Part shown: positions 4,422 through 55,937 of the stretch, in pieces | How positions within the stretch are numbered: position 1 is the first letter of the stretch | Layout: every line of letters begins with the position of its first letter | IMG/VR virus record: IMGVR_UViG_3300045988_175656 | DNA: 64,000 bases | Origin: a virus | Direction: 5' to 3' (one strand) | Position numbers and translations under genes: made by a program | Notes under the pieces: generated by a model | What the model saw: only the letters and a program-made list of their open reading frames with translations | Database searches by the model: none | What the model was told of the DNA's origin: nothing

Positions 4422-7400
4422 ATGGCATATATAACACCAACGAATCCCAAATGGGCTACCTGGTATGATGTATCACAAGCCTTACAAGAGCGTACTGGAG
4501 ATTATACACAAGCTAATACTCAGTACGCTACAAAGGCGTATATAATTGCTAATTTTGATAATATTCATTTGGAAAAACTGAATACAACAAATAATTCAAT
4601 TGGTATTTCATACTTGAACACTCAATTTGTAAAATGGGCTGATGTTGAAGCAATCGAATATGTTTTTTATATAGATACAGTTGGTAATACTGCACAAACT
4701 GTAACTAAAGATTATTATGCTTATAGTCAAACATTTGTTATATATTCCTACAAAAATATATACAAAAATGGTACTTTAGTTACGAGTAATATTCCTGTTG
4801 CATGGCATTATAATTCATCTCAAACAGGATGGACTACTAATTCACCAACAGGCGGTACAGCTAGTGCAACAACTATTACACTTGCAATACCTGAGAATAA
4901 GACAACAGCACAAATCAATTATAATTGGAGTGCTATTCAAAATGAAGGTAGAACATCAGGGGCAAAATCTATTTCAATTCAATTTCAACATAAAGCCAAA
5001 TATGGTATAATTGCTTGGAATCCTTCAGGAGATATTTCAGTTGTATCTACTGCAACAACTGTTGATAAAGGAATTGTTGTAACAGGTAATTTCAATGATA
5101 ATATATCAGATAGCCAAGGTACTGATGCAGCAAACATATTAACTGCTGTAACAATTACAACAAGTGAAACATGGGTTACAGGTATTACATTCTCATTAAC
5201 CAATTCAAATTATAAGTTCCCAATGTGGACATCTGAAACGGCTGATAGAGTAACAACAATAACATTAACTGTAAATGACCCACGATTAACATTGAGTGGA
5301 CCGTCAACATTTAAAATAACACAAAAAATGCGTGTTGTTACATTTGATAATTTCAATTTTGAATTTTTACTAAATAATCCTTTATTTGGATGTATGGGTG
5401 GAACTAAAAATTATAAGATTATATCAACAGCTAATATGTATTATGATGGTACATTGCAAAATGTTGTGAATATGAAATATATTTTCCTTAATTATGATTC
5501 TTGGATAACAATTAATGACACACAAGAGTCTGAGAGAAGTGTGTTTAATGGTGCTAATTCTGGTAGTGGTACTGTAACAATTGGTGAAAACCCATATGAA
5601 GGTGTTGATAGATATGGTTATATTAATTTGAGACAAATCAATTCAGAAGGTCAACAGTTGAAGGAAGTAATTGTACAAGATATACCTTGCATGGTATATC
5701 ATTTTGATATATCTCCAACATCAATAACTGTACCTGGTCCAACAAGTGGAACCAGTGGAATAACAGTTACATCATATAAAATTATGAATGGTCATACAGA
5801 AAGCCCTATTCCTGTTGGTTATAAAGTCTCAACAGGTTCAAGTTGGCTAACAGTAACAGGAAATTCTTCACCAAGTGCAAGTGCAACAACTAATACAATT
5901 ACATATGCACAAAATCCAAGTACAGCAAGAAGTGCAATTGTTACATATACACAAGATGAAATAAATGAAGATGACTATGAATACAATAAACAATTAACTG
6001 TAAATCAAGAAGATGGTTTCATATATGTTTATAAATTTAGTATAAATGGCACTGAAGGAGCAACAACAACTCCAAGTCCTACTATTAATTTATCACAATT
6101 TGCATTTGGTGGTGGAAGTCAAACTGTGAGTCTTAAATCATATGCTGAAGTGCATATCGGTTCAGCAACAGGTACAATAGACCATTATGAAGCTATTAAT
6201 TGGAGTGAAACGACTTGTAATTGGCTAACTGTATCACCATCATCAGGTAATGGTACATCAAGTCCTACTGATAACACAACTGTTACAACAACTGCAAGTG
6301 CTCAATCAGATTCAAGTAGTGATAATAGTAGATGTTGTGATATTACATTTACACAAGCAACTAGTGGTAAAAAAGTAATTGTTCATGGATGTCAAGAAAA
6401 GAGTCAAACAGGCTATACTTATACATTTACAATTGATACAAGTAGTTTAAGTTTTGAAGCATGTTCTTCAACTTCAAAATCAGCTAATATTACATCATAT
6501 AGAGAAACTACAAGAAATGGCAGTATAATTTCTGGAAGTAGAGTTAATATTGGTTACAGTGTTAATACAGTATCATGGGCAACAGCTACTTCAAATAGTA
6601 GCCCAAGCGCAAATGTTACAAGTACAACTATTACAGCTAATTCTAACTCAAATAACACTTCATCAAGAAGTGGTACATTTACTTATACACAAAGTGGAAG
6701 TAATAGAACTGTTACTCTTGGGGTAAGTCAAGATGGTGCAACTTGTGCTGTTTATGACAGAGGACCTTTACAAGTGAATATTGGTGGTGGTTTTACAACT
6801 GCTGCAAGTACAAATGTAGCAAGTGGTTCAACTACAATTAATGTTAGTTTTAGTTCGCCACAATATTTAAGTCTTTGTGGTATTAGTACTAATACTAAAT
6901 GTTCTGATGGTATAGAAAGTTATAAAGTAGAGTCTAAACCATCATGGATTACAAGTAATATTGGTGACAATTATTCAACAGGTAATGATGTATTAACTGT
7001 TTCAAGTAGTGATGTTTCTTCAGAAAGAACTGGAACTGTTGTATATACAAATGGATATACAACTGCATCTGTAACAGTAACACAAGCACAAGGTTTAAGT
7101 TATACTTATTATTTCAAAGTAAATAATAAGGAATCAAGTAAAATTAATCCTGACCATGAAACAAGTAGTACATTATCATTTAGTAATACAGGTTCTTCAA
7201 CAACATTTACTGTTGAATCATATAGAGTAAACAGTATATCAGGAGCTAAAGAATATGTTGTTTCTGACACTATTCAAGGTCTTTTACCATCATACATTAG
7301 TTTAGTTGGTAGTGGTCCTGTTAATTACATAATGACTTACACAGTAACATTAACTGAAAATACTGATACAATTGGTCGTAACTATACATTACAATTTGTA

Positions 7401-8070: not shown

Positions 8071-11000
8071 TTATTGTTCAAGAAATTTTTCAAATTTCTC
8101 AATTCCACCTTTTTTCTTAACTAATTCAAGAAGTTTTTTCATTGTTTCGCTATCACTATCTTCATTATTATTTGAAGATATTTCAGCATGATTAGTTTCT
8201 TTTTCTTCAATTATTGTTGCACTTTTCAAATTATATTGCGCAACTTCAGTTGCATCCATTATAACTTGTGGTGTTTTATTTAACAATTTACAAATTTTAT
8301 TTTCAATATAGTTAAGTTCTGTTAACGCTGCTGATGGGTCAATCATACCTGCTGATGGAGAAATTTCAGTTTCAGATACAAATCCTAATTTATATTTTGC
8401 TCGTGTATAAGCAACATACATTAAATTTTGTTCTTGTTCTTTCTCCCAATCTTGGGTTGCAAGTCTGCTTGGCATTAATGTCTTGCATAAAATATAAACA
8501 TTATTTGCTTCAAGTCCTTTTGCTTTATGGATTGTTGATAAACAAACACCATCTGCACTTTCAGCAAACACATTTTCAATTCTATCATGTAAATCTCTTG
8601 CTGATGTTAAACCTTCAGCAAGAATTTCAAGAGCTTTAATTGAATCATATTTGTTCATAATTTGATTAGAAAGGGTTGCATCTTCTAAATCCATTCCTCT
8701 TTTAATCATAAGGCGGTTTCTTTCTTCAAATAAGTCATCATAAAGTCTTGCAAATACGCCATCTTTTTGTAAACTAACATTCAACACTATTTGTTCAGTC
8801 TTATCAACCATTCTTAGCAGATTTAAGCCAATATCTTGTCCTCTGACATAGGATTTAACACCCATGCGAAGATAACGCATATAAAGCTTTATAAGTGGCA
8901 TTTTTGTGCGACATAAGACCATATCTCCATCATGTATATCTTTTATTGATACATTATGAACAATTTCTCCATCAGGTGCTCCTTCTCTACATTCCATTGT
9001 GTCAACAAACTGATTAGCCAAGTTAACAACTTTTTTAGGGCAACGATAGGAAATTGGTAAAGGTAATGTTGTGGTATTAGGTAAATTTTGTAATTTCGCA
9101 AAACTTTCAGCATCCGCTCCAGCGAAAGAATAGATGGATTGCTTTTTGTCGCCGACAGCAATAAACCTAGTGCCACGTCTAAAACATCTTAAAAATAATT
9201 CTCGTTGTGCTGCATTTAAATCTTGGCAATTATGTACAATAAATCCTTCATTATTAGTTTCACACTTTGTATTCCAACTACCACTTGTTATAATAAAATT
9301 ATGATTATCTTCAACTTCAATATCATAAACAATTTCTTTTTTTGATAACATTTTCATTGAGGTAATTGGCATACCACCAAGTTCACTTGAAGTATTATCC
9401 CATTTATAAGTGTTTACTAAATGTTTAAAATCATCATGTATTTTATATTGTAAGCATTTGTTAATATATGGGGCAAACATTTCACTTAATTTATAAGAAT
9501 CTTTGACACCAATACTAATATAAAAATACTCTTTATTTGAAGTGGATGATTTAGATAGATGTTTAGAAACGCATTCAATACCAAAAAATTTAATTCTTTT
9601 TATTAATAAATCAATCAATTCTTCGTTATGTACACATGAGTATAATCTCATAGTACCATTTTTATCATAGCTTCCATTATCTTGGTAATTAATTGCTAAC
9701 TGTTTAATAGTTAAATTATTAATAATTTCTTTTTTATCTAAATCATTGTTAGGAATACAATATCCTAATGTTGAAAATGCATATGCATTTTTTTCACTAA
9801 AGCCATTTTTTTCAATGTGTCTTATTTCACTAATATCCTGATTAAACATATTGCATTTCCATTCAATATATTCTTTTTGTTCTTCTCCATGAATAAATTT
9901 GCATCTAAAAACCCCATTTGACAATTTATTCAGCGAACCATCTCCTATGACTGATGCTTTAAATAAATCCAATTGGTATGGATTCAGAAACCCATGATAA
10001 GGCTGGTGTTTAGTTGATGATAATATATAATCGCCAACTGTTAACTCAGAAATATATTGATAACCATTTAATGTTAAAAAACGTTCATTTGGTGTACATT
10101 TGATTTTTCTTTTTCCACCTACAATAATTTCTATTAAATCACGCTCTCCCTTATTAAAGACGTTTAATATTTTTTTATCTTCAAATTTTTGTGTTTTCTC
10201 ATTAAATGATTTAACTAATGGTAATGGTTTATTATTAATAAATCTATTATATAAATCACCAATTTTTAATTTGCCATAAGTTGTAGAAATCCTTTGTTCA
10301 TATGGAAAGCACTCGTCAATAAAAATATAATCATATTGTAAACCAATTGGATTTAGTGTTAATTCATATGGTAGCCATACCATATCCGTAAAATCAATTG
10401 AGGTTGTATTTTCTCTCCCCCATTTCATTACATTAAGAACTGCATTACACTCATCATCTATAATTGGAATATCATGTCTTGCTGATACTTGTAGTAAATC
10501 TTTTTCACATTGTGCAAGGTTATATCTTCCCAAATCACATAATTGAATCACATTATCAGTATATTGTTGCATCAATTTTGTAGTCATTTTATCAAAATCA
10601 GCAGAAGATAATTGTTTTATATTCTTCTTGATAAAAGTGCGATATTTGTATTCATCAATCTCAATATTAGTACCAAGATTTCTTCGTATCATTAAGAATC
10701 CAAGACTATGTAATGTTTTTACTTGAACATTTTTGACACCTTCAAGTTTCTTTTCCAATTCTTTAACAATTTCTTTATTAAAGGCAATAAACAATGCATT
10801 GCAAGTGGGTGGTATAAGTTTTACTGCATTTACAATTGTAGATGTGTTATGTGTGATTGTGAAATCAGATAGCAAAAAACGTCCATTACCATCCAATGTA
10901 AACCCATAATAATCACCCTCACCAATTTTATCAATTCTAAAACCAACATGGCAAACATTTTTATTTATTAAACGTTTGTCAGCTTTTTTATAATCAGTTA

Positions 11001-12054
11001 CAACTGGTATTTTTTCTATATCACCACTAATTGTTATATTATGATATGATTTAATAACACCATTATTATGACATTTTTTATTTTTTATTTTATCATAAGC
11101 TGAAAAACCTAAACTACGGCACAGAAATAAAATATCTTTGGCTAACATGTCAAATTTAGTTGAAATAAAATAATTTTTCTTTTTATAATAGCCATCAGAA
11201 TCAATTAAGCCAGCTAAAAGTTTTAATCTAACTTCTTCCGTGTTTATTAAATAATTTTTTAAAATGAATTTTTCATTGTTAATTGAACTACTCCTAACAA
11301 ATCGTCTAAACGAATTATATTTATGTTTATTATTAGTTAAAATATTTATTTTTGGGCATTTGTTTCTATATTTTTTAATATCAATATAATTTTCATTTGG
11401 TATTGTTTTTTCAATTTCATTTATAACATTTTCATTAATGTTAGTTATTAATGATTGATTAGTAGTGCCATCTCCAAGCCACATACCATATAACCAAGGG
11501 TCAATATCAATTGCATTCTCCCTAAATTTAACTCCTGTTTTTAGCAGTTTATACATTCTAAAATCACCATCAGTATGATGTGTATTCCCAATAATATTAT
11601 TGTTTTCTAACTCATTAATAGGTATATCAACAGTAATAAATTTACCTTTATTATGTTTATTACCAGAAATATATTTTGATAAAGTTAAAATATGAGCATC
11701 ATTACACACCCAAGCATCTCCTTTTTTTGGTTGTATTTTTCTTAATTGTCCATAACCTTTAGTTACAGACAATACAGTTCTTGGAGTTGAGTCATCACCC
11801 ATCAATTTATCGCCAACAATAATATCTTGTACTTTTTTTATAGAGCCATCATACATTAATATCTCAGTATCTACACCAAGACATTTTCCTGAACCAGCAA
11901 GAGCATTAATAACCGAATTTCCATTTCCATGTTGAATAAAGTCAAAAATATCTTGTTGATATTTACTTGGAATAAATCCAGACATTATTTGTGCAGGTTC
12001 TACTATTTTCGTTTTTCTTCCTCTTTTCTTCTTTGGTAATTCTTCTTCTTTCAT
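8071..12054 (-). CDS. UvrD/Rep/PcrA-like SF1 DNA helicase precursor carrying two inteins
   Basis: Extein motifs are AGSGK|TST (Walker A, split), FIAFNKEIVKEL, KTLHSLG, IFIDE|CQDLN (motif II, split), VGDKKQSIYSFAGA, ISYRCP, STIHKAKGLE and YVAYTRAK. 1327 aa minus 346 minus 361 leaves a 620-aa mature helicase. Confidence 0.9.
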   Translation of the reverse strand: MKEEELPKKKRGRKTKIVEPAQIMSGFIPSKYQQDIFDFIQHGNGNSVINALAGSGKCLGVDTEILMYDGSIKKVQDIIVGDKLMGDDSTPRTVLSVTKGYGQLRKIQPKKGDAWVCNDAHILTLSKYISGNKHNKGKFITVDIPINELENNNIIGNTHHTDGDFRMYKLLKTGVKFRENAIDIDPWLYGMWLGDGTTNQSLITNINENVINEIEKTIPNENYIDIKKYRNKCPKINILTNNKHKYNSFRRFVRSSSINNEKFILKNYLINTEEVRLKLLAGLIDSDGYYKKKNYFISTKFDMLAKDILFLCRSLGFSAYDKIKNKKCHNNGVIKSYHNITISGDIEKIPVVTDYKKADKRLINKNVCHVGFRIDKIGEGDYYGFTLDGNGRFLLSDFTITHNTSTIVNAVKLIPPTCNALFIAFNKEIVKELEKKLEGVKNVQVKTLHSLGFLMIRRNLGTNIEIDEYKYRTFIKKNIKQLSSADFDKMTTKLMQQYTDNVIQLCDLGRYNLAQCEKDLLQVSARHDIPIIDDECNAVLNVMKWGRENTTSIDFTDMVWLPYELTLNPIGLQYDYIFIDECFPYEQRISTTYGKLKIGDLYNRFINNKPLPLVKSFNEKTQKFEDKKILNVFNKGERDLIEIIVGGKRKIKCTPNERFLTLNGYQYISELTVGDYILSSTKHQPYHGFLNPYQLDLFKASVIGDGSLNKLSNGVFRCKFIHGEEQKEYIEWKCNMFNQDISEIRHIEKNGFSEKNAYAFSTLGYCIPNNDLDKKEIINNLTIKQLAINYQDNGSYDKNGTMRLYSCVHNEELIDLLIKRIKFFGIECVSKHLSKSSTSNKEYFYISIGVKDSYKLSEMFAPYINKCLQYKIHDDFKHLVNTYKWDNTSSELGGMPITSMKMLSKKEIVYDIEVEDNHNFIITSGSWNTKCETNNEGFIVHNCQDLNAAQRELFLRCFRRGTRFIAVGDKKQSIYSFAGADAESFAKLQNLPNTTTLPLPISYRCPKKVVNLANQFVDTMECREGAPDGEIVHNVSIKDIHDGDMVLCRTKMPLIKLYMRYLRMGVKSYVRGQDIGLNLLRMVDKTEQIVLNVSLQKDGVFARLYDDLFEERNRLMIKRGMDLEDATLSNQIMNKYDSIKALEILAEGLTSARDLHDRIENVFAESADGVCLSTIHKAKGLEANNVYILCKTLMPSRLATQDWEKEQEQNLMYVAYTRAKYKLGFVSETEISPSAGMIDPSAALTELNYIENKICKLLNKTPQVIMDATEVAQYNLKSATIIEEKETNHAEISSNNNEDSDSETMKKLLELVKKKGGIEKFEKFLEQ
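9229..10311 (-). mobile_element. intein 2 (361 aa) with LAGLIDADG-type endonuclease, inserted in helicase motif II (DExx)
   Basis: Begins with Cys582 after FIDE (CFPYEQRIS...), has block F/G VYDIEVEDNHNFI...GFIVHN, and is followed by +1 Cys. Endonuclease motifs are KASVIGDGSL and LAINYQDNGSY. Splicing restores FIDECQDLN. Confidence 0.8.
10846..11883 (-). mobile_element. intein 1 (346 aa) with LAGLIDADG homing endonuclease, inserted in the helicase P-loop
   Basis: Begins with Cys58 directly after GSGK (CLGVDTEILMYDGS) and ends ...FTITHN followed by +1 Thr. It has LAGLIDADG-type motifs WLYGMWLGDGT and LLAGLIDSDGYY. Splicing restores GSGKTST. Confidence 0.85.
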
Positions 12055-12073: not shown

Positions 12074-12096
12074 CAAATATATTTTATGCAAATATA
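12074..12096 (-). promoter_or_regulatory. two tandem Bacteroidota-type -7 boxes (TATATTTG) upstream of the helicase gene
   Basis: The reverse complement reads tcgTATATTTGcataaaaTATATTTGtaat, 20-35 nt upstream of the ATG at 12054. It matches the TAnnTTTG consensus. Confidence 0.65.
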
Positions 12097-15398: not shown

Positions 15399-15411
15399 TA
15401 GTTTTACAATG

Positions 15412-15419
15412 CAAATATA
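15412..15419 (-). promoter_or_regulatory. Bacteroidota-type promoter: -7 TATATTTG with a -33 TTTG (15440-15443) 20 nt upstream
   Basis: The minus strand reads cTTTTGgagttctcgttttttattcgTATATTTGcat. The -33 element lies in the loop of the upstream terminator hairpin. Confidence 0.7.
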
Positions 15420-15422
15420 CGA

Positions 15423-15455
15423 ATAAAAAACGAGAACTCCAAAAGAATTCTCGTT
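15423..15455 (-). terminator. rho-independent terminator of the thyA operon
   Basis: Stem aacgagaa/ttctcgtt followed by T6 on the minus strand. It is part of a 45-bp cassette repeated at 55893-55937. Confidence 0.75.
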
Positions 15456-29489: not shown

Positions 29490-30098
29490 TTATATTTTTA
29501 CTTTATAAAACTTTGAAAGATAATCATCAAGTCTTAAATGATGACTAAATGCCCATTTATGCGAATAAAACCAATCAAAATCAGATGTTAATGTTTTACG
29601 TTTATCTTTTTTAAAGATTTTTTCCCACCATTTTAGACCTGTAATTTTTCCAATATACATCCAATTAACAAGTTCAATTTCATCTTTTTCGCCACCAATA
29701 GCTTTCTCCAAAGAAAAATCTTCTTTGTCATCTGCAAAATAACCAAAATGTGCACTAACATTTTGTCTATTTTCTGCTGGGTCAGAATTAACTTTCAACA
29801 ATATAAGTTTTTTCTTATCACCAATAAAGCCTGTTTCTTCTTTTAATTCTCTAAGAACAGCATCTTCCAAAGTTTCATTAAAATCAAGATAGCCACATGG
29901 TACACAGAAATGACCAACATAATCTGCTGCGCCTTTTCCACGTTTTTCAGTTAACACAAATAGTTTGCCATCAACCTCTTTAAACACATACCCAACTACC
30001 GCCATTGCACGAGAAATCCAATAAATTTTACCTTCAACTTTAACTGGAAAATTTTGGTTTTCTGACAATGTTTTTTCAATTCTTGTTCCTTCTTTCAT
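29490..30098 (-). CDS. Nudix hydrolase
   Basis: Canonical Nudix box GYLDFNETLEDAVLRELKEETGF (Gx5Ex7REUxEExGU). Confidence 0.85.
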   Translation of the reverse strand: MKEGTRIEKTLSENQNFPVKVEGKIYWISRAMAVVGYVFKEVDGKLFVLTEKRGKGAADYVGHFCVPCGYLDFNETLEDAVLRELKEETGFIGDKKKLILLKVNSDPAENRQNVSAHFGYFADDKEDFSLEKAIGGEKDEIELVNWMYIGKITGLKWWEKIFKKDKRKTLTSDFDWFYSHKWAFSHHLRLDDYLSKFYKVKI

Positions 30099-30099
30099 G

Positions 30100-30222
30100 T
30101 TAATATTTATTAATTAATGTTTCTAATATTTCAAACCAATAGCATTTATTAGTTTTTTCATCCATTATCAGAAATGGCATCATTCCAATAACAGTTATTA
30201 CCATAATAATTGTGATAAGCAT
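30100..30222 (-). CDS. possible 40-aa single-TM peptide (below ORF-track cutoff)
   Basis: My own translation is MLITIIMVITVIGMMPFLIMDEKTNKCYWFEILETLINKY. It fills the gap between the channel and Nudix genes. Confidence 0.25.
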   Translation of the reverse strand: MLITIIMVITVIGMMPFLIMDEKTNKCYWFEILETLINKY

Positions 30223-30235
30223 CCATAAAGCAATA

Positions 30236-31039
30236 CTAATCGTTATTCCCAAACTTCTCATTTTGCTTTTTAATCATTTCTTTTAATTCTTGTAATTCTT
30301 TCATTACATTGTCATTATTATCAACAGCTAATTCATCTGTAAATGACGATGTAACAAAACTCATGCCAAACATGCCACCAATCAACACTATCAAACAAAA
30401 TGCAATTTTACTAATTGTTCCTATTAGTGGCGATGTGTTGTCAGCAATTGCGTTAGGTATATCATACCACCCTTCAATTGTAAACATTCTAAATACAGTA
30501 TATATGGATTCAATTGGATTACCAAAATATTCAGGAGCAATTTTAGAATATAAACTTGATAATATAATTGATATAATAAATATTAGTATGAATATTCCAA
30601 CAATTACACCAATACTAGCTCTAAACGCAATTTTAAGATTCAATAATAATCTTTCATAATTCGGTATTGCTCTGAATAATCTTGTACATTTAAAAATCCT
30701 AACTGTTCTTAATACCAAGAGATAATCCATTCTTTCTAAATAAGAACCAAAAAACAATGGTAATAAACTAATAACAACCAATATAAAATCAAATGTGTTT
30801 ATATGTTTTTTAAAAAACCGTTTTCCATATATTTTTACTTTAATAGCAATTTCGATTCCAAATATTATTGTTAAAATCAAATCAATAGTAACCATTCTAT
30901 CGTGTAACCACAATGGAATACTACTGAATGCCAATAAAAATGTAACAAAACAGTTAATAACTATTAACCATGTTATATTATTATCATTCAGAAAAAACGA
31001 ATATATATTCTTTATTATTTTTAGTTTCATATTTGTCAT
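30236..31039 (-). CDS. BacNaV-type voltage-gated cation channel (6-TM, Ion_trans family)
   Basis: Six hydrophobic segments. S4 is VLRTVRIFKCTRLFRAI, with a basic residue every third position. The P-loop APEYFGNPIESIYTVFRMFTIEGWYD is comparable with NaChBac SPEYFGN...VVTLESWAS. A C-terminal coiled coil follows, and the 267-aa length is close to NaChBac. Confidence 0.8.
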   Translation of the reverse strand: MTNMKLKIIKNIYSFFLNDNNITWLIVINCFVTFLLAFSSIPLWLHDRMVTIDLILTIIFGIEIAIKVKIYGKRFFKKHINTFDFILVVISLLPLFFGSYLERMDYLLVLRTVRIFKCTRLFRAIPNYERLLLNLKIAFRASIGVIVGIFILIFIISIILSSLYSKIAPEYFGNPIESIYTVFRMFTIEGWYDIPNAIADNTSPLIGTISKIAFCLIVLIGGMFGMSFVTSSFTDELAVDNNDNVMKELQELKEMIKKQNEKFGNND

Positions 31040-31052
31040 TATTAAAACAATG

Positions 31053-31060
31053 CAAATATA
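31053..31060 (-). promoter_or_regulatory. Bacteroidota-type -7 promoter box (tatTATATTTGcat) for the channel gene
   Basis: TAnnTTTG 14 nt upstream of the ATG at 31039. Confidence 0.6.
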
Positions 31061-31103
31061 ATACTAATTTCTATAAAACCAAAAAATTAATATCTAATAA
31101 ATG

Positions 31104-32030
31104 TTAATCCATAAACATTTTAAGATTTTCAACAATATATGGATTATATAATTCAATATCAGGCATTTCTTCTTTTGTTCTTGTCACGCCATATAATGTA
31201 GTGTGTATAATATCATATAAATGTTGATTATTACTATGATAATGAATGAAACCATTTGTCTTATCAATAGCTCCATATTCCAAAAGAATACCTGCTGCCA
31301 TAGCAGTCTTACACTTTTCCGTAGTAAAAGCATAATTAAAACCCATAAATATACGACTATCCCCCATAATTGGGTTTTCAATCGCATCAAGACATGGAGA
31401 TAAACCTAAAACCTTGACCATTTCAATTCTCCAATATTCTCTTAACTTATTTATTTCCATATCATTGATTATAATTCTATTATAATCAAAATCATACCAT
31501 TTTAATCCTGTTTCAGAATCATGGTTTGAAATATTCATATTAGTTGGTCTTAGTATGAAATAAACATCCGCACCAAGTTCTTCCAATGCTTTCTTTTCGT
31601 TTGGAAAACGGCAATCATCAACAATTATTATTTTATCAGTTGATTGGTATTCTTTAATTTCGTTAACTAATGTATCAACATGCCAATTAGGTTCAAATTT
31701 TCTAATAAGATTAGTTCCAATTATTTGAAGCATCATTCTAACTGATGTAAAAGTTGTACCATTAATTATTTCTCTTATTGATTTTTCATCAATATTTGTT
31801 CTTTTATTGATTATTCTAATCCACCTTATATCAGGAACTATTGAAAACTTATTAGGAATATTCTTTATTTCATTTAATTCATCATATGTTATGTTTAACA
31901 GTTCAGCACATAAGTTCTTCAACGCATTACCAAAACTAAAAACACTTACATTTTCAAAATTTTCTATACATACAGAAGCTAACTCTGATTTTCCAGACTG
32001 TTTACGTCCAGCAAGCCCAATTATTCTCAT
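31104..32030 (-). CDS. deoxynucleoside monophosphate kinase-like P-loop protein with C-terminal extension
   Basis: MRIIGLAGRKQSGKSELA (Walker A) and IIVDDCRFPNEKKALEELGA, as in phage dNMP kinases. The start is moved to Met16 because the TAnnTTTG box at 32044-32051 lies inside the longer ORF. Confidence 0.55.
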   Translation of the reverse strand: MRIIGLAGRKQSGKSELASVCIENFENVSVFSFGNALKNLCAELLNITYDELNEIKNIPNKFSIVPDIRWIRIINKRTNIDEKSIREIINGTTFTSVRMMLQIIGTNLIRKFEPNWHVDTLVNEIKEYQSTDKIIIVDDCRFPNEKKALEELGADVYFILRPTNMNISNHDSETGLKWYDFDYNRIIINDMEINKLREYWRIEMVKVLGLSPCLDAIENPIMGDSRIFMGFNYAFTTEKCKTAMAAGILLEYGAIDKTNGFIHYHSNNQHLYDIIHTTLYGVTRTKEEMPDIELYNPYIVENLKMFMD

Positions 32031-32043
32031 ATTTTCTTTTTTG

Positions 32044-32051
32044 CAAATATA
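32044..32051 (-). promoter_or_regulatory. Bacteroidota-type -7 promoter box (gttGTATATTTGCAaaa)
   Basis: 14 nt upstream of the ATG at 32030, the same spacing as at 15412 and 31053. Confidence 0.6.
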
Positions 32052-32123: not shown

Positions 32124-32492
32124 ATGAAAAAATTTGTAGAATATATCAAATTGTTAATAAAATCAAATAATGGAGATTCAAGTAAAAGTTTTTTTCTTGT
32201 ATCAGTTACATTAACAGGTATTTTATTGCTATTGATATGTGGGTTAGTTTTAATCATTGATGTTTGTTGTACTGGATACATTATAACTGATTTATATGGA
32301 GTAGCAACAGTCATTGCTTCTATCGCATCATTATTTGGTGCTGTTGGATGGACTAAAGTTGCAGGAGAAAAACGTTTTTATGATTACAAAAAATATTATC
32401 CAGAAGAAAAACAGAGTTTAAATAATAAATCTTCTAATGATAGCATATGTGTTAAACCATCTGAAGATGATATTGAAAATGCATTAAAATAA
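32124..32492 (+). CDS. two-TM membrane protein (holin-like or exclusion-type)
   Basis: FFLVSVTLTGILLLLICGLVLII and YGVATVIASIASLFGAVGW are followed by a charged tail. This is a plus-strand islet inside a minus-strand block. Confidence 0.5.
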   Translation: MKKFVEYIKLLIKSNNGDSSKSFFLVSVTLTGILLLLICGLVLIIDVCCTGYIITDLYGVATVIASIASLFGAVGWTKVAGEKRFYDYKKYYPEEKQSLNNKSSNDSICVKPSEDDIENALK

Positions 32493-41552: not shown

Positions 41553-41599
41553 TTATATGGGTATTGTTAACTATTTATATAAATAAAAATATAAATATT

Positions 41600-43492
41600 A
41601 TGGTTTCATTACAACAAATACAAACCGAATACATAAAAAGTTATACAGATAAAACACGTAAATATTTTATCGAAAATTTTCTATCAACATTTGATGCTGA
41701 TAGAAGAAAATCTGTACCATTTAAATTATTTCCAAGACAAATTGAATTTTTAAAAAGTATAGTAAAATACCCTAATTCTATTGCTATTAAACATAGACAG
41801 GCAGGTATTACAACAGTTTCTAGCGCATGGGTAACAGCACAAATAGTTTTTGCTAGTAAAGATGCTCCTGAAACTGTATTATGTATTGGTAATAAACTTG
41901 ATATTTCTCAACAATTAGTGACAAAAATTGGTGATTTCTTAGACCAAGTTCCAAGATATTTCTGGGGAGATGAATTTTATTCACCAGACCCTAAAAGTGA
42001 GAAAAATAAAAAATCCATTTATGAGATTAGAAATAAGTCTGAACTTCAACTATTTAATGGCTGTAAAGTTGTTGCCCGTTCTTCAGGCGAAAATGCTGCT
42101 CGTGGTATATCGGCTGTTTCTATATTAATTTTTGACGAAGCAGCATTTATTGAAAATGGACTTTCTGTTTATGCACAAGCTGTTGCTGCAACTGCATCAG
42201 TAAGAGATGCAAAAATCATTATGGTATCAACGCCAAATGGTAAAGACCAACTTTATTATCGTACTTATTCCAAAGCATTAGAAAAGAAGAATAATTATAA
42301 TGCAGTAGAATTTAAGTGGTTTCAAGACCTTCGTTATAACCGTAACTTAAAATGGTATAAGAAAGATAAAGAAACTGGCGAATTTGAATGGATTAAAGAA
42401 GAAACAATAGATGCTGAAGGAAATATAAGATATAATGAAGAAAGATGGCGTGAATTAGAAAAAAATGGTTGGATTCCAACATCTCCTTGGTATGAAAATA
42501 TGTGTCAGAGTTTCAATGGTGATGAAATGAAAATTGCACAAGAATTAAATGTATCTTTCTTGGGTTCATCTGATAATGTTATTGCACCTGAAGTAATAGA
42601 GTTTCAACTTAATAATAATGTGGTTTACTTACCTGATGATTGGAATTTAAAAGACCCGTTTGTTGAAGAAACTTGGATTTGGAAAGACCCAATACCAGGA
42701 CACAGATATATTTGTGCAGTAGATGCTTCTCGTGGTGATGCTGCGGATAAAACAGCTATTGAAATTATTGATATAGATGCTAAAGATGAAAATGGTAATC
42801 CATATTTTGACCAAGTTCTTGAATATAATGGTAAAAGAACAGGTGATGAAATTGGTGAAATTGTATTTAATTATGCAACTGCTTATAATAACGCTTTAGT
42901 AGTAATAGATTGTGTTGGTGGTACAGGTGATGCAGCAGTATTAACATTAATGCGGTTAAAATACCCTAATTTATATTATGATGACCCATCATTGAAAACC
43001 TACATGATTCAAAGAAAATATAGTGAGTATAATCTTAAAGATACTGATAGACTTCCTGGTTTCCATCAATCATCTGTTCGTTATCAGATGTTAAGTAATT
43101 TTGTTACAATGGTTAAAAATAATTCATTTAGGGTTAGGTCTATTCGTGTTATTAATGAAATGGAAACATGGATTTTCAAAGGTGAAGCAAGACGTATTGA
43201 CCATATGGATGGTTGTCATGATGATACATTAACATGCATTGCGATGGCATTATTTGTACTACAATTTTCATTCTTTAAAATGGAAGATACTAAGAAAAAA
43301 GATGCTGTAATTCTAAAATCATGGGTTGTTAACAATAATATTAATTCAATAAAACGCCCAACAATAGATAATAAATCTGTTTCAATTGCCCCTGATAGAA
43401 TTTTGCCATTTTATAATAAAAAGACTTTAGACCAAAAATCTAATAAAGTAAGTGGAACTTATATGTGGCTTATTGGAAGTATAAAAAGATAA
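41600..43492 (+). CDS. terL: terminase large subunit
   Basis: Deviant Walker A IKHRQAGITT (K-x-RQ-x-G-x-T type), Walker B ILIFDEAAFI, coupling motif VSTPNG, and nuclease acidic residues CAVDASRGD and DGCHDDTL. I use the ATG at 41600 instead of the TTG at 41564. Confidence 0.85.
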   Translation: MVSLQQIQTEYIKSYTDKTRKYFIENFLSTFDADRRKSVPFKLFPRQIEFLKSIVKYPNSIAIKHRQAGITTVSSAWVTAQIVFASKDAPETVLCIGNKLDISQQLVTKIGDFLDQVPRYFWGDEFYSPDPKSEKNKKSIYEIRNKSELQLFNGCKVVARSSGENAARGISAVSILIFDEAAFIENGLSVYAQAVAATASVRDAKIIMVSTPNGKDQLYYRTYSKALEKKNNYNAVEFKWFQDLRYNRNLKWYKKDKETGEFEWIKEETIDAEGNIRYNEERWRELEKNGWIPTSPWYENMCQSFNGDEMKIAQELNVSFLGSSDNVIAPEVIEFQLNNNVVYLPDDWNLKDPFVEETWIWKDPIPGHRYICAVDASRGDAADKTAIEIIDIDAKDENGNPYFDQVLEYNGKRTGDEIGEIVFNYATAYNNALVVIDCVGGTGDAAVLTLMRLKYPNLYYDDPSLKTYMIQRKYSEYNLKDTDRLPGFHQSSVRYQMLSNFVTMVKNNSFRVRSIRVINEMETWIFKGEARRIDHMDGCHDDTLTCIAMALFVLQFSFFKMEDTKKKDAVILKSWVVNNNINSIKRPTIDNKSVSIAPDRILPFYNKKTLDQKSNKVSGTYMWLIGSIKR

Positions 43493-55871: not shown

Positions 55872-55893
55872 ATTTTCATTTTTAATGTTTGTG

Positions 55894-55901
55894 CAAATAT
55901 A
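55894..55901 (-). promoter_or_regulatory. Bacteroidota-type promoter (-7 TATATTTG; -33 TTTG in the terminator loop)
   Basis: Part of the 45-bp cassette that is 44/45 identical to 15411-15455. Confidence 0.7.
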
Positions 55902-55904
55902 CAA

Positions 55905-55937
55905 ATAAAAAACGAGAACTCCAAAAGAATTCTCGTT
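55905..55937 (-). terminator. rho-independent terminator after phoH
   Basis: Same hairpin as at 15423-15455 (aacgagaa/ttctcgtt followed by a T-run). Confidence 0.75.

Follow-up and report, generated by a model that had tools for sequence, protein, structure and literature searches.

Voltage-gated channels of the Na/Ca type underlie electrical signalling, and to our knowledge their role in bacteria is almost unknown. Virus-encoded channels are familiar from the chloroviruses and other algal viruses, whose Kcv and related proteins are tetrameric P-loop channels acting on host membrane potential. Kcv is a minimal K+ pore of two transmembrane segments (2TM) with a TxGYG-type filter and no voltage sensor, and the viruses that carry these channels infect eukaryotes. 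Phages alter host membrane potential by holins and pinholins, membrane proteins that form non-selective holes and are triggered by accumulation. Here we analyse a gene in a 64,000-nucleotide (nt) stretch of viral DNA, IMG/VR record IMGVR_UViG_3300045988_175656 (the whole stretch is called the window below). Its product, 267 amino acids (aa) encoded at 30236-31039 on the minus strand, is very probably, by homology and structural modelling, a BacNaV-type voltage-gated channel. Unlike Kcv, it has six transmembrane segments (6TM) and a T-x-E-G-W filter of the Na/Ca type, and it is encoded by a phage. Unlike holins and pinholins, to which it is unrelated in fold and sequence, it is predicted to form a gated selective pore.

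Published BacNaV channels comprise the Bacillus, NavAb-like and AnclNav groups. NavMs, NavAb and NaChBac are Na+-selective and carry the filters TLESWSM or TLESWAS. CavMr of Meiothermus ruber, the one characterised native prokaryotic voltage-gated Ca2+ channel, belongs to the AnclNav group (Shimomura et al. 2020, PMC7041947). In CavMr and NavPp the glycine at filter position 4 (Gly4) is the key determinant of Ca2+ selectivity: the substitutions G4D and G4S drop PCa/PNa to ~8-12, and moving the CavMr filter into NavPp gave a PCa/PNa of 215 (PMC7041947).

The open reading frame (ORF) is present exactly as it was quoted in an earlier note on this DNA, which had been made from the letters alone and had called it a BacNaV-type channel. 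Pfam, PDB and Foldseek comparisons all support that call. The product matches Pfam Ion_trans (PF00520), the profile search the note had proposed, over residues 23-229 with 73.4 bits (gathering cutoff 25, E=2e-20). A phmmer search against all PDB sequences returned 122 matches, of which NavMs was the top one (E~4e-22), followed by NavAb, NaChBac, CavAb variants and CaV3 domains. An AlphaFold2 (AF2) model of the monomer, made with 64 homologues, has a mean predicted local confidence score (pLDDT) of 87.9 with no segment below 50, and contains the expected 6TM helices. Likewise, Foldseek matched this model to NavMs, NavAb, CavAb, NaChBac chimeras and one CatSper subunit with probability 1.00 and TM scores of 0.6-0.76; nearly all of the top 50 PDB matches are BacNaV structures or BacNaV-based chimeras, the CatSper chain being the addition. 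Among the PHROGs the only match was a weak one to phrog_7872 (function unknown, E=4e-6), and no lysis family was matched. The protein consists of an S1-S4 voltage sensor, an S4-S5 linker and an S5-P1-filter-P2-S6 pore, which is the BacNaV architecture. Its parts are as follows.

30236..31039, minus strand: channel coding sequence (ORF, Ion_trans and NavMs matches, AF2 model, Foldseek, and the substitution rates given below)
30668..30985, minus strand: voltage-sensor domain S1-S4, residues 19-124, with N29, D53, F60, E63, K67 and D84 (AF2 helices; mapping to NavAb)
30671..30709, minus strand: S4 gating charges R111, R114, K117 and R120 (equivalent to NavAb R1-R4) plus R123 (alignment to NavAb, NavMs, NaChBac and CavMr)
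30332..30619, minus strand: pore domain with S5, P1 helix, filter, P2 helix and S6, residues 141-236 (AF2 helices 128-164, 175-185, 188-200 and 204 onward; Foldseek matches to BacNaV pores)
30461..30481, minus strand: selectivity filter T187-I-E189-G190-W191-Y192-D193 (column-for-column alignment with CavMr TLEGWVD and NavAb TLESWSM)
30248..30331, minus strand: C-terminal neck and short coiled-coil helix, residues 237-264 (continuous predicted helix 204-264, pLDDT 78-93)

Aligning the protein with 30 published BacNaV sequences, including NavAb, NavMs, NaChBac and CavMr, allowed us to map its residues to NavAb numbering. S4 reads VLRTVRIFKCTRLFRAI (residues 109-125, nt 30665-30715); the earlier note had recognised this helix and placed it one codon off, at 30668-30718. 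It had also counted five basic residues at every third position, and these are R111, R114, K117, R120 and R123. The first four align with NavAb R99, R102, R105 and R108, and R123 is an additional charge. The charge-transfer Phe is F60 (NavAb F56), and the intracellular negative cluster consists of E63 and D84 (NavAb E59 and D80). D53 stands at the position of NavAb N49 (Asp in NaChBac), and K67 and N29 correspond to NavAb R63 and N25. R114 is invariant and R111 at least 90% conserved in the 64 homologues, and the mapped voltage-sensor residues (gating charges, F60, E63, D84, D53, K67 and N29) are invariant in 14 phage-clade sequences. The mapping thus confirmed the voltage sensor and pore as complete, in agreement with the earlier description. 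In S6, Gly222 stands at the position of NavAb T206. S6 runs on as one predicted helix through residues 204-264, whose end resembles, in the model, the BacNaV tetramerisation neck and coiled coil; in the best heptad register, which is short, hydrophobic residues occupy 5 of 8 a/d positions. A separate observation concerns C118 (nt 30686-30688), a cysteine that follows the third S4 charge (RxxRxxKCxR) in the clade A members inspected (the query, P0012, P0016 and P0017) and in a further viral copy, L023; at this position A, S, F or I occurs in the cellular homologues inspected.

The filter, TIEGWYD, lies at nt 30461-30481, within the 30461-30484 first assigned to it. It agrees with CavMr 183-TLEGWVD-189 at 5 of 7 positions, Gly4 included. 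Both proteins are single-domain 6TM channels with the pattern T-(L/I)-E-G-W-x-D, having Gly4 and Asp7, and both have the Glu ring at the same column. In contrast, the TLESW of the canonical NavAb-like and Bacillus groups has Ser at position 4. E189 and W191 are invariant and G190 is at least 90% conserved in the 64 homologues. The earlier note had likened the E-G-W-x-D filter to CaV P-loops and to acidic substitutions that make NaChBac Ca2+-permeable. Alignment bore out the CaV likeness, but the best functional comparator is CavMr TLEGWVD, not engineered NaChBac or CavAb mutants. By alignment the filter is of the CavMr and CaV domain I/III type, and a preference for Ca2+ is therefore predicted, to which we give slightly better than even weight. 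A natural Gly-to-Ser variant, TIESWYE, occurs in the phage clade (P0017, a cluster of 29 sequences); the equivalent G4S in CavMr removes monovalent-cation discrimination.

We compared the family with 30 published references from the Bacillus, NavAb-like and AnclNav groups, and the tree (neighbour-joining only) separated it from them at 100% bootstrap. Identity of the channel is 26% to NavMs and 19% to CavMr. The split and the low identity therefore indicate a distinct BacNaV clade outside the three published groups. Membership of the AnclNav/CavMr clade was ruled out by the same placement. CavMr and the phage-encoded channel are unlike in further respects: the latter has Tyr6 in place of Val6 and an S6 Ser in place of Asn, and it is without the long P2-S6 insertion seen in the aligned CavMr and NavPp. 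NavMs, NavAb and NaChBac are its best matches in sequence (E~1e-22) and structure, and have the same sensor charges and countercharges and a C-terminal helical neck, but they differ from it in clade, filter and predicted selectivity. The PEYFGN motif before its P helix is common to the Bacillus group, and the NaChBac stretch SPEYFGN...TLESWAS that the earlier note had aligned to it is borne out by the sequence set of Shimomura et al. 2020.

Cellular members of the family gave more than 555 matches in species-representative genomes, mostly of Bacteroidota, and are at most 44% identical to the phage channel. The homologues recovered, phage and cellular, have T/S-(I/V)-E-G-W-(Y/F/N)-(D/E) followed by "IP", the exceptions being the one G-to-S variant and a second viral clade described below. 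Bacteroidota channels with T-(I/V)-E-G-W-(Y/F/N)-(D/E), such as P0032 from a Bacteroidales metagenome-assembled genome and L031, L046 and L071 from Prevotella, share with the phage channel the filter, the "IP" and the S6 Gly and Ser. Unlike it, they are chromosomal and lack the phage-clade S4 Cys. Sequence comparison makes such cellular channels of Bacteroidota the likely source of the phage gene.

Several features weigh against a conducting, Ca2+-preferring channel. The S1 acidic residue (NavAb E32) is replaced by Leu36. An S6 Asn (NavAb N211, shared by CavMr and NaChBac) is general to Na/Ca channels, and the phage channel has Ser227 in its place, as do 14 of 14 phage-clade sequences and 54 of 55 cellular family members. 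Placement outside the AnclNav clade, with only 19% overall identity to CavMr, means that the filter sits in a different scaffold. Filter swaps between CavMr and NavAb yielded no current, and V6T in CavMr reduced selectivity (PMC7041947); position 6 of the phage channel is Tyr. Our confidence in the Ca2+ preference is moderate because the scaffold differs, because position 6 is Tyr and not Val, and because filter swaps between distant scaffolds gave no current.

We examined the surroundings of the gene. The window encodes a large terminase (TerL), portal, major head protein, tail fibres, NAD-dependent ligase, ThyA, a ClpB-like ATPase, a deoxynucleoside monophosphate (dNMP) kinase, a NUDIX hydrolase and thioredoxin. 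Its GC content is uniform (25-33%), the channel forming no island, and no tRNAs lie within it. In IMG/VR the channel gene recurs at 97-99% identity at five loci; four of the contigs measure 215-380 kb and the fifth is shorter, and the size of the four identifies the source as a jumbo phage. Two neighbours keep their places beside it.

31104..32030, minus strand: upstream syntenic neighbour, dNMP kinase (DNMK), with its own promoter at 32042-32051 (Pfam DNMK, phrog_139; synteny)
29490..30098, minus strand: downstream syntenic neighbour, NUDIX hydrolase (Pfam NUDIX, phrog_1198; synteny)

The order dNMP kinase, channel, NUDIX was found in at least 10 independent assemblies from IMG/VR, Logan, ENA and JGI (L007, L008, L011, L108, L109 and L110 among them). 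It is kept even where the channel is only 48-51% identical, in L007 (a 233-kb contig) and in L011 (which carries a terminase). These two share with the window about 20 collinear genes at 35-65% identity: TerL 59%, ClpB-like 50%, ThyA 48% and the channel 50%. Divergence of the channel in step with core genes indicates vertical inheritance. Furthermore, the phage channels form one clade in neighbour-joining trees, with bootstrap values of 1.00 (99 taxa) and 0.93 (187 taxa). Together, these comparisons mark the gene as an old, vertically inherited part of a jumbo-phage lineage, not a recent capture. Hallmark genes, GC content, synteny and collinearity bear out the earlier note's view that it belongs to a phage rather than a host, and recurrence of the locus in so many independent assemblies shows that it is not the assembly chimera which that note had named as a possible refutation. 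The retention described here covers roughly 12 loci. In a census of the lineage anchored on the ClpB-like ATPase, the single protein recovered only the four known contigs, and among the matches listed for its profile were at least four further loci, each without the syntenic region or ending before it.

Nei-Gojobori dN/dS of the channel was 0.014-0.11 in pairs with dS of 0.12-1.0, and no copy examined contained a stop or frameshift. In the comparison with L114, identity is 97% for the channel, 73% for the dNMP kinase, 86% for NUDIX and 70% for ThyA; where the channel is at 97%, neighbouring genes range over 57-94%. Judged by these substitution patterns, the channel gene is functional and tightly constrained, under strong purifying selection.

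Two side observations concern the locus in its relatives. A TnpB / IS605 OrfB gene (Cas12f1-like_TNB) is inserted at varying sites near the channel (L007 6368-7687; L008 139-1458; L011 11464-13092). On P0062, a 1.5-kb ENA contig, a 311-aa gene call joins the C-terminal quarter of the channel (99% identity) to a SAM methyltransferase; the fusion is probably an artefact of assembly or gene calling.

The earlier note had given the channel its own host-type promoter, TAnnTTTG, 14 nt upstream. The bare motif was rejected as promoter evidence: it occurs 116 times in the window against 132 expected and is not enriched. The extended form TATATTTGCA occurs 9 times against 1.1 expected, a count reached in 0 of 100 shuffles, and TTTG-N18-21-TATATTTGCA occurs 5 times against 0.05 expected, the channel's site being one of the five. 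The promoter therefore stood once the motif was extended, with a spacing of 13 and not 14 nt.

31051..31083, minus strand: channel promoter, with -33 TTTG, a 19-nt spacer and -7 TATATTTGCA (motif enrichment)

Within it, TATATTTG lies at 31053-31060 on the minus strand, and 13 nt separate the TTTG of the -7 box from the ATG. Translation from Met4 (nt 31030) instead would shorten the protein to 264 aa, and close orthologues are called from this start; the identical 13-nt spacing from motif to ATG at three genes favours Met1. The (G)TATATTTGCA sites are at 12087, 12713, 15410, 22449, 25072 (plus strand), 31051, 32042, 36328 and 55892, several with TTTG 19-20 nt upstream. All nine are upstream of same-strand non-structural genes, namely the helicase, the ThyA block, the ligase block, the channel, the dNMP kinase, an AAA ATPase and others. 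The site at 32042 places the start of the dNMP kinase at ATG 32030, not TTG 32075. Stretches of ~41 nt at 15410-15450 and 55892-55932 are near-copies with one base different.

TTTG-N19-21-TAnnTTTG is what we take to be the Bacteroides/Bacteroidota sigma-A -33/-7 consensus. The nearest cellular homologues of the channel are from Prevotella and other Bacteroidales, and the nearest TerL from a cultured phage in GenBank is that of a Flavobacterium phage, at 28% identity. Because of this promoter class, the cellular relatives and the nearest TerL, we infer that the host is most likely a member of the Bacteroidota and that host RNA polymerase would transcribe the channel before the late genes; for the timing, only promoter class and gene neighbourhood were considered. 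The phage is probably one of gut or rumen Bacteroidota.

A profile scan of IMG/VR yielded further viral copies. L023, whose 400-kb contig is from the same sample, groups with the phage clade (85% bootstrap) and has that clade's "K-C" motif in S4. A second viral clade, with 100% bootstrap, consists of L025, L026 and L027 (contigs of 47-189 kb, the channel lying at ~6001-6780 of all three), and its filter is S/TVEGWN-S/T, which is without the acid at position 7. Neighbours in this clade are Thg1, a sigma factor and DUF723/DUF4379/DUF5889, typical of huge phages, and its viral status is as given by IMG/VR. Two separate viral clades indicate that large phages acquired the channel at least twice. 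The short "viral" contigs L019-L022 and L024 nest in cellular clades and are probably host fragments. In L023 (2774-6756) and in L026 (a 154-kb contig) the channel is preceded by genes for an OmpA-domain or substrate-binding protein, for an ABC permease, whose domain was confirmed only in L023, and for an ABC ATPase.

We found no description of a phage voltage-gated or BacNaV-type channel in the open-access full-text literature, where a paper in a subscription journal could be missed. The words channel, calcium and sodium are absent from a 2026 jumbo-phage review, a 2026 large-scale genomic survey of jumbo phages and the 2020 huge-phage paper. Likewise, GenBank phages (50,697 records) held no credible homologue of the channel or of a clade-B channel query, and BFVD viral structures gave no channel match at E<=1e-3. 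Megablast of a 10-kb region and tblastn of the channel against GenBank phages returned one weak 175-bp DNA match and one partial protein match, MT835812.1. The latter (L120, 2839-3543; UNVERIFIED Bacteriophage sp. from human faeces) is a NavAb-like ORF with a degenerate filter without TLESW, set amid genes that by eye appear to be housekeeping genes; it looks like bacterial carry-over. JGI automatic annotation labels a homologue on a phage-like contig "voltage-gated sodium channel". Phage channel sequences are thus already in databases but undescribed. Within the open-access literature and GenBank phages, then, nothing contradicts the earlier note, which knew of no characterised phage channel of the Na/Ca type, and the survey of phage databases it called for turned up further copies in IMG/VR and none that is credible among GenBank phages.

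On balance we consider it reasonably likely that the gene product functions as a voltage-gated cation channel, a single-domain 6TM member of the BacNaV superfamily, that the gene is long-standing in jumbo phages which most likely infect Bacteroidota, and that the channel works as follows. Host RNA polymerase would transcribe the channel together with early or middle nucleotide-metabolism genes. Four subunits would then assemble in the host cytoplasmic membrane, where the channel, by analogy with its relatives, would be shut at resting potential and would open on depolarisation. Glu189 and Asp193 of the four subunits, together with Gly190 (found also in CavMr and CaV domains I/III), would pass Ca2+ or Ca2+-preferred cations inward. 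In the weakest step of the scheme, this depolarisation-triggered influx would amplify or latch the depolarisation (superinfecting phage, membrane-targeting defence or holin firing). Our confidence in any specific role during infection is low, and the roles proposed are speculation. No holin was identified near the channel, and an SLT lysin lies ~4 kb away; with no holin identified, nothing specifically supports an action on lysis timing.

Could the phage copy simply stand in for the host's own channel, sustaining a Na+ or Ca2+ cycle after host shut-off, and perhaps being Na+-selective? Members of this family are common throughout the likely host phylum, where they sit in housekeeping contexts, JGI labels homologues as voltage-gated sodium channels, and the phage gene lies amid the metabolic genes DNMK, NUDIX, ThyA and thioredoxin. 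However, Gly4 and the acid at position 7 are the CavMr/CaV signature and not TLESW, which argues against replacement of a Na+ channel, and the age of the phage clade, no closer than 44% to any cellular copy, argues that it is not a simple spare host gene. We regard such replacement as unlikely. An origin as artefact or passenger, meaning a host-derived chimera or a recent, decaying and functionless moron, is effectively refuted. Phage genomes do acquire host genes, and the short IMG/VR contigs and the GenBank match are probably bacterial material; yet the locus recurs across assemblies with uniform GC and a promoter class shared with neighbouring phage genes, and the monophyletic phage clade is as diverged as the core genes, with low dN/dS and no stop or frameshift.

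A protein with a channel fold that does not conduct might instead sense voltage or lipids, or else poison a host channel by co-assembly, as a decoy or inhibitor. The departures from reference BacNaVs (Ser for N211, Gly for T206 and loss of E32) would fit such a protein, as would the Cys after K3 in S4, which phage-clade channels have and cellular homologues do not. Some cellular homologues lie beside HSDR_N genes and DarT/Macro genes, hinting at defence islands, and the phage copy could counter such a system. Against this, E189, G190, W191 and all gating charges are invariant in the phage clade under strong purifying selection, as one would expect if pore and sensor work; cellular homologues have the S6 and E32 differences too; and PADLOC assigned no known defence family. 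A non-conducting protein therefore appears quite improbable, and a working voltage-gated channel remains the reading we prefer.

The defence context comes from two cellular loci, L012 (10001-13738) and L111 (6828-8798), in which a channel homologue directly adjoins a gene with an HSDR_N/HSDR_N_2 domain; in L012, DarT and a Macro-domain (DarG-like) gene come next after the pair. Such an arrangement suggests that some cellular family members sit in defence islands. PADLOC gave no match for the phage channel, for the two cellular homologues or for their HSDR_N neighbours, nor for a small ORF that abuts the channel in the window.

30100..30261, minus strand: 53-aa single-pass membrane ORF, overlapping the channel 3' end by 26 nt (gene call in L108 and L109)

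This small ORF is 58-96% conserved in L001, L003-L005, L108 and L109, frameshifted in L002 and absent in more distant relatives, and it matched no family. Conservation at this level, and in closer relatives only, indicates that it evolves faster than the channel; it is possibly an accessory subunit or an unrelated small membrane protein. Beside the dNMP kinase, 32124-32492 on the plus strand encodes a 122-aa hydrophobic protein, 57% conserved in L007 and L011, with a weak match to phrog_944 'membrane protein' (host-takeover category). Elsewhere in the window, 8071-12054 on the minus strand encodes a 1327-aa protein that combines N-terminal profile matches to ATPases of the terminase-large-subunit type with a C-terminal DNA helicase (phrog_1967), separate from TerL at 41564-43492.

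In its fullest form the finding would be a working Ca2+-selective channel, the first voltage-gated one from a prokaryotic virus, which turns depolarisation into a Ca2+ influx controlling the cell, and which represents a fourth BacNaV clade acquired by phages on at least two independent occasions. We put this forward tentatively, as a possibility that may well fall short in one part or another. If true, the channel could be used in superinfection exclusion, in evading abortive infection that depolarises the membrane, or in sharpening lysis timing. The list of virus-encoded channels, made up of minimal K+ pores and viroporins, would gain a full voltage-gated one. A small (264-267 aa), AT-rich, predicted homotetrameric channel with natural variants (G4S, and a clade without the position-7 acid) would offer a comparative set for Ca2+ selectivity, and may serve as a compact Ca2+-channel tool. 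A constrained phage channel would imply that voltage-dependent cation entry matters in infection, and phage knockouts would give a genetic handle on bacterial membrane-potential and Ca2+ physiology.

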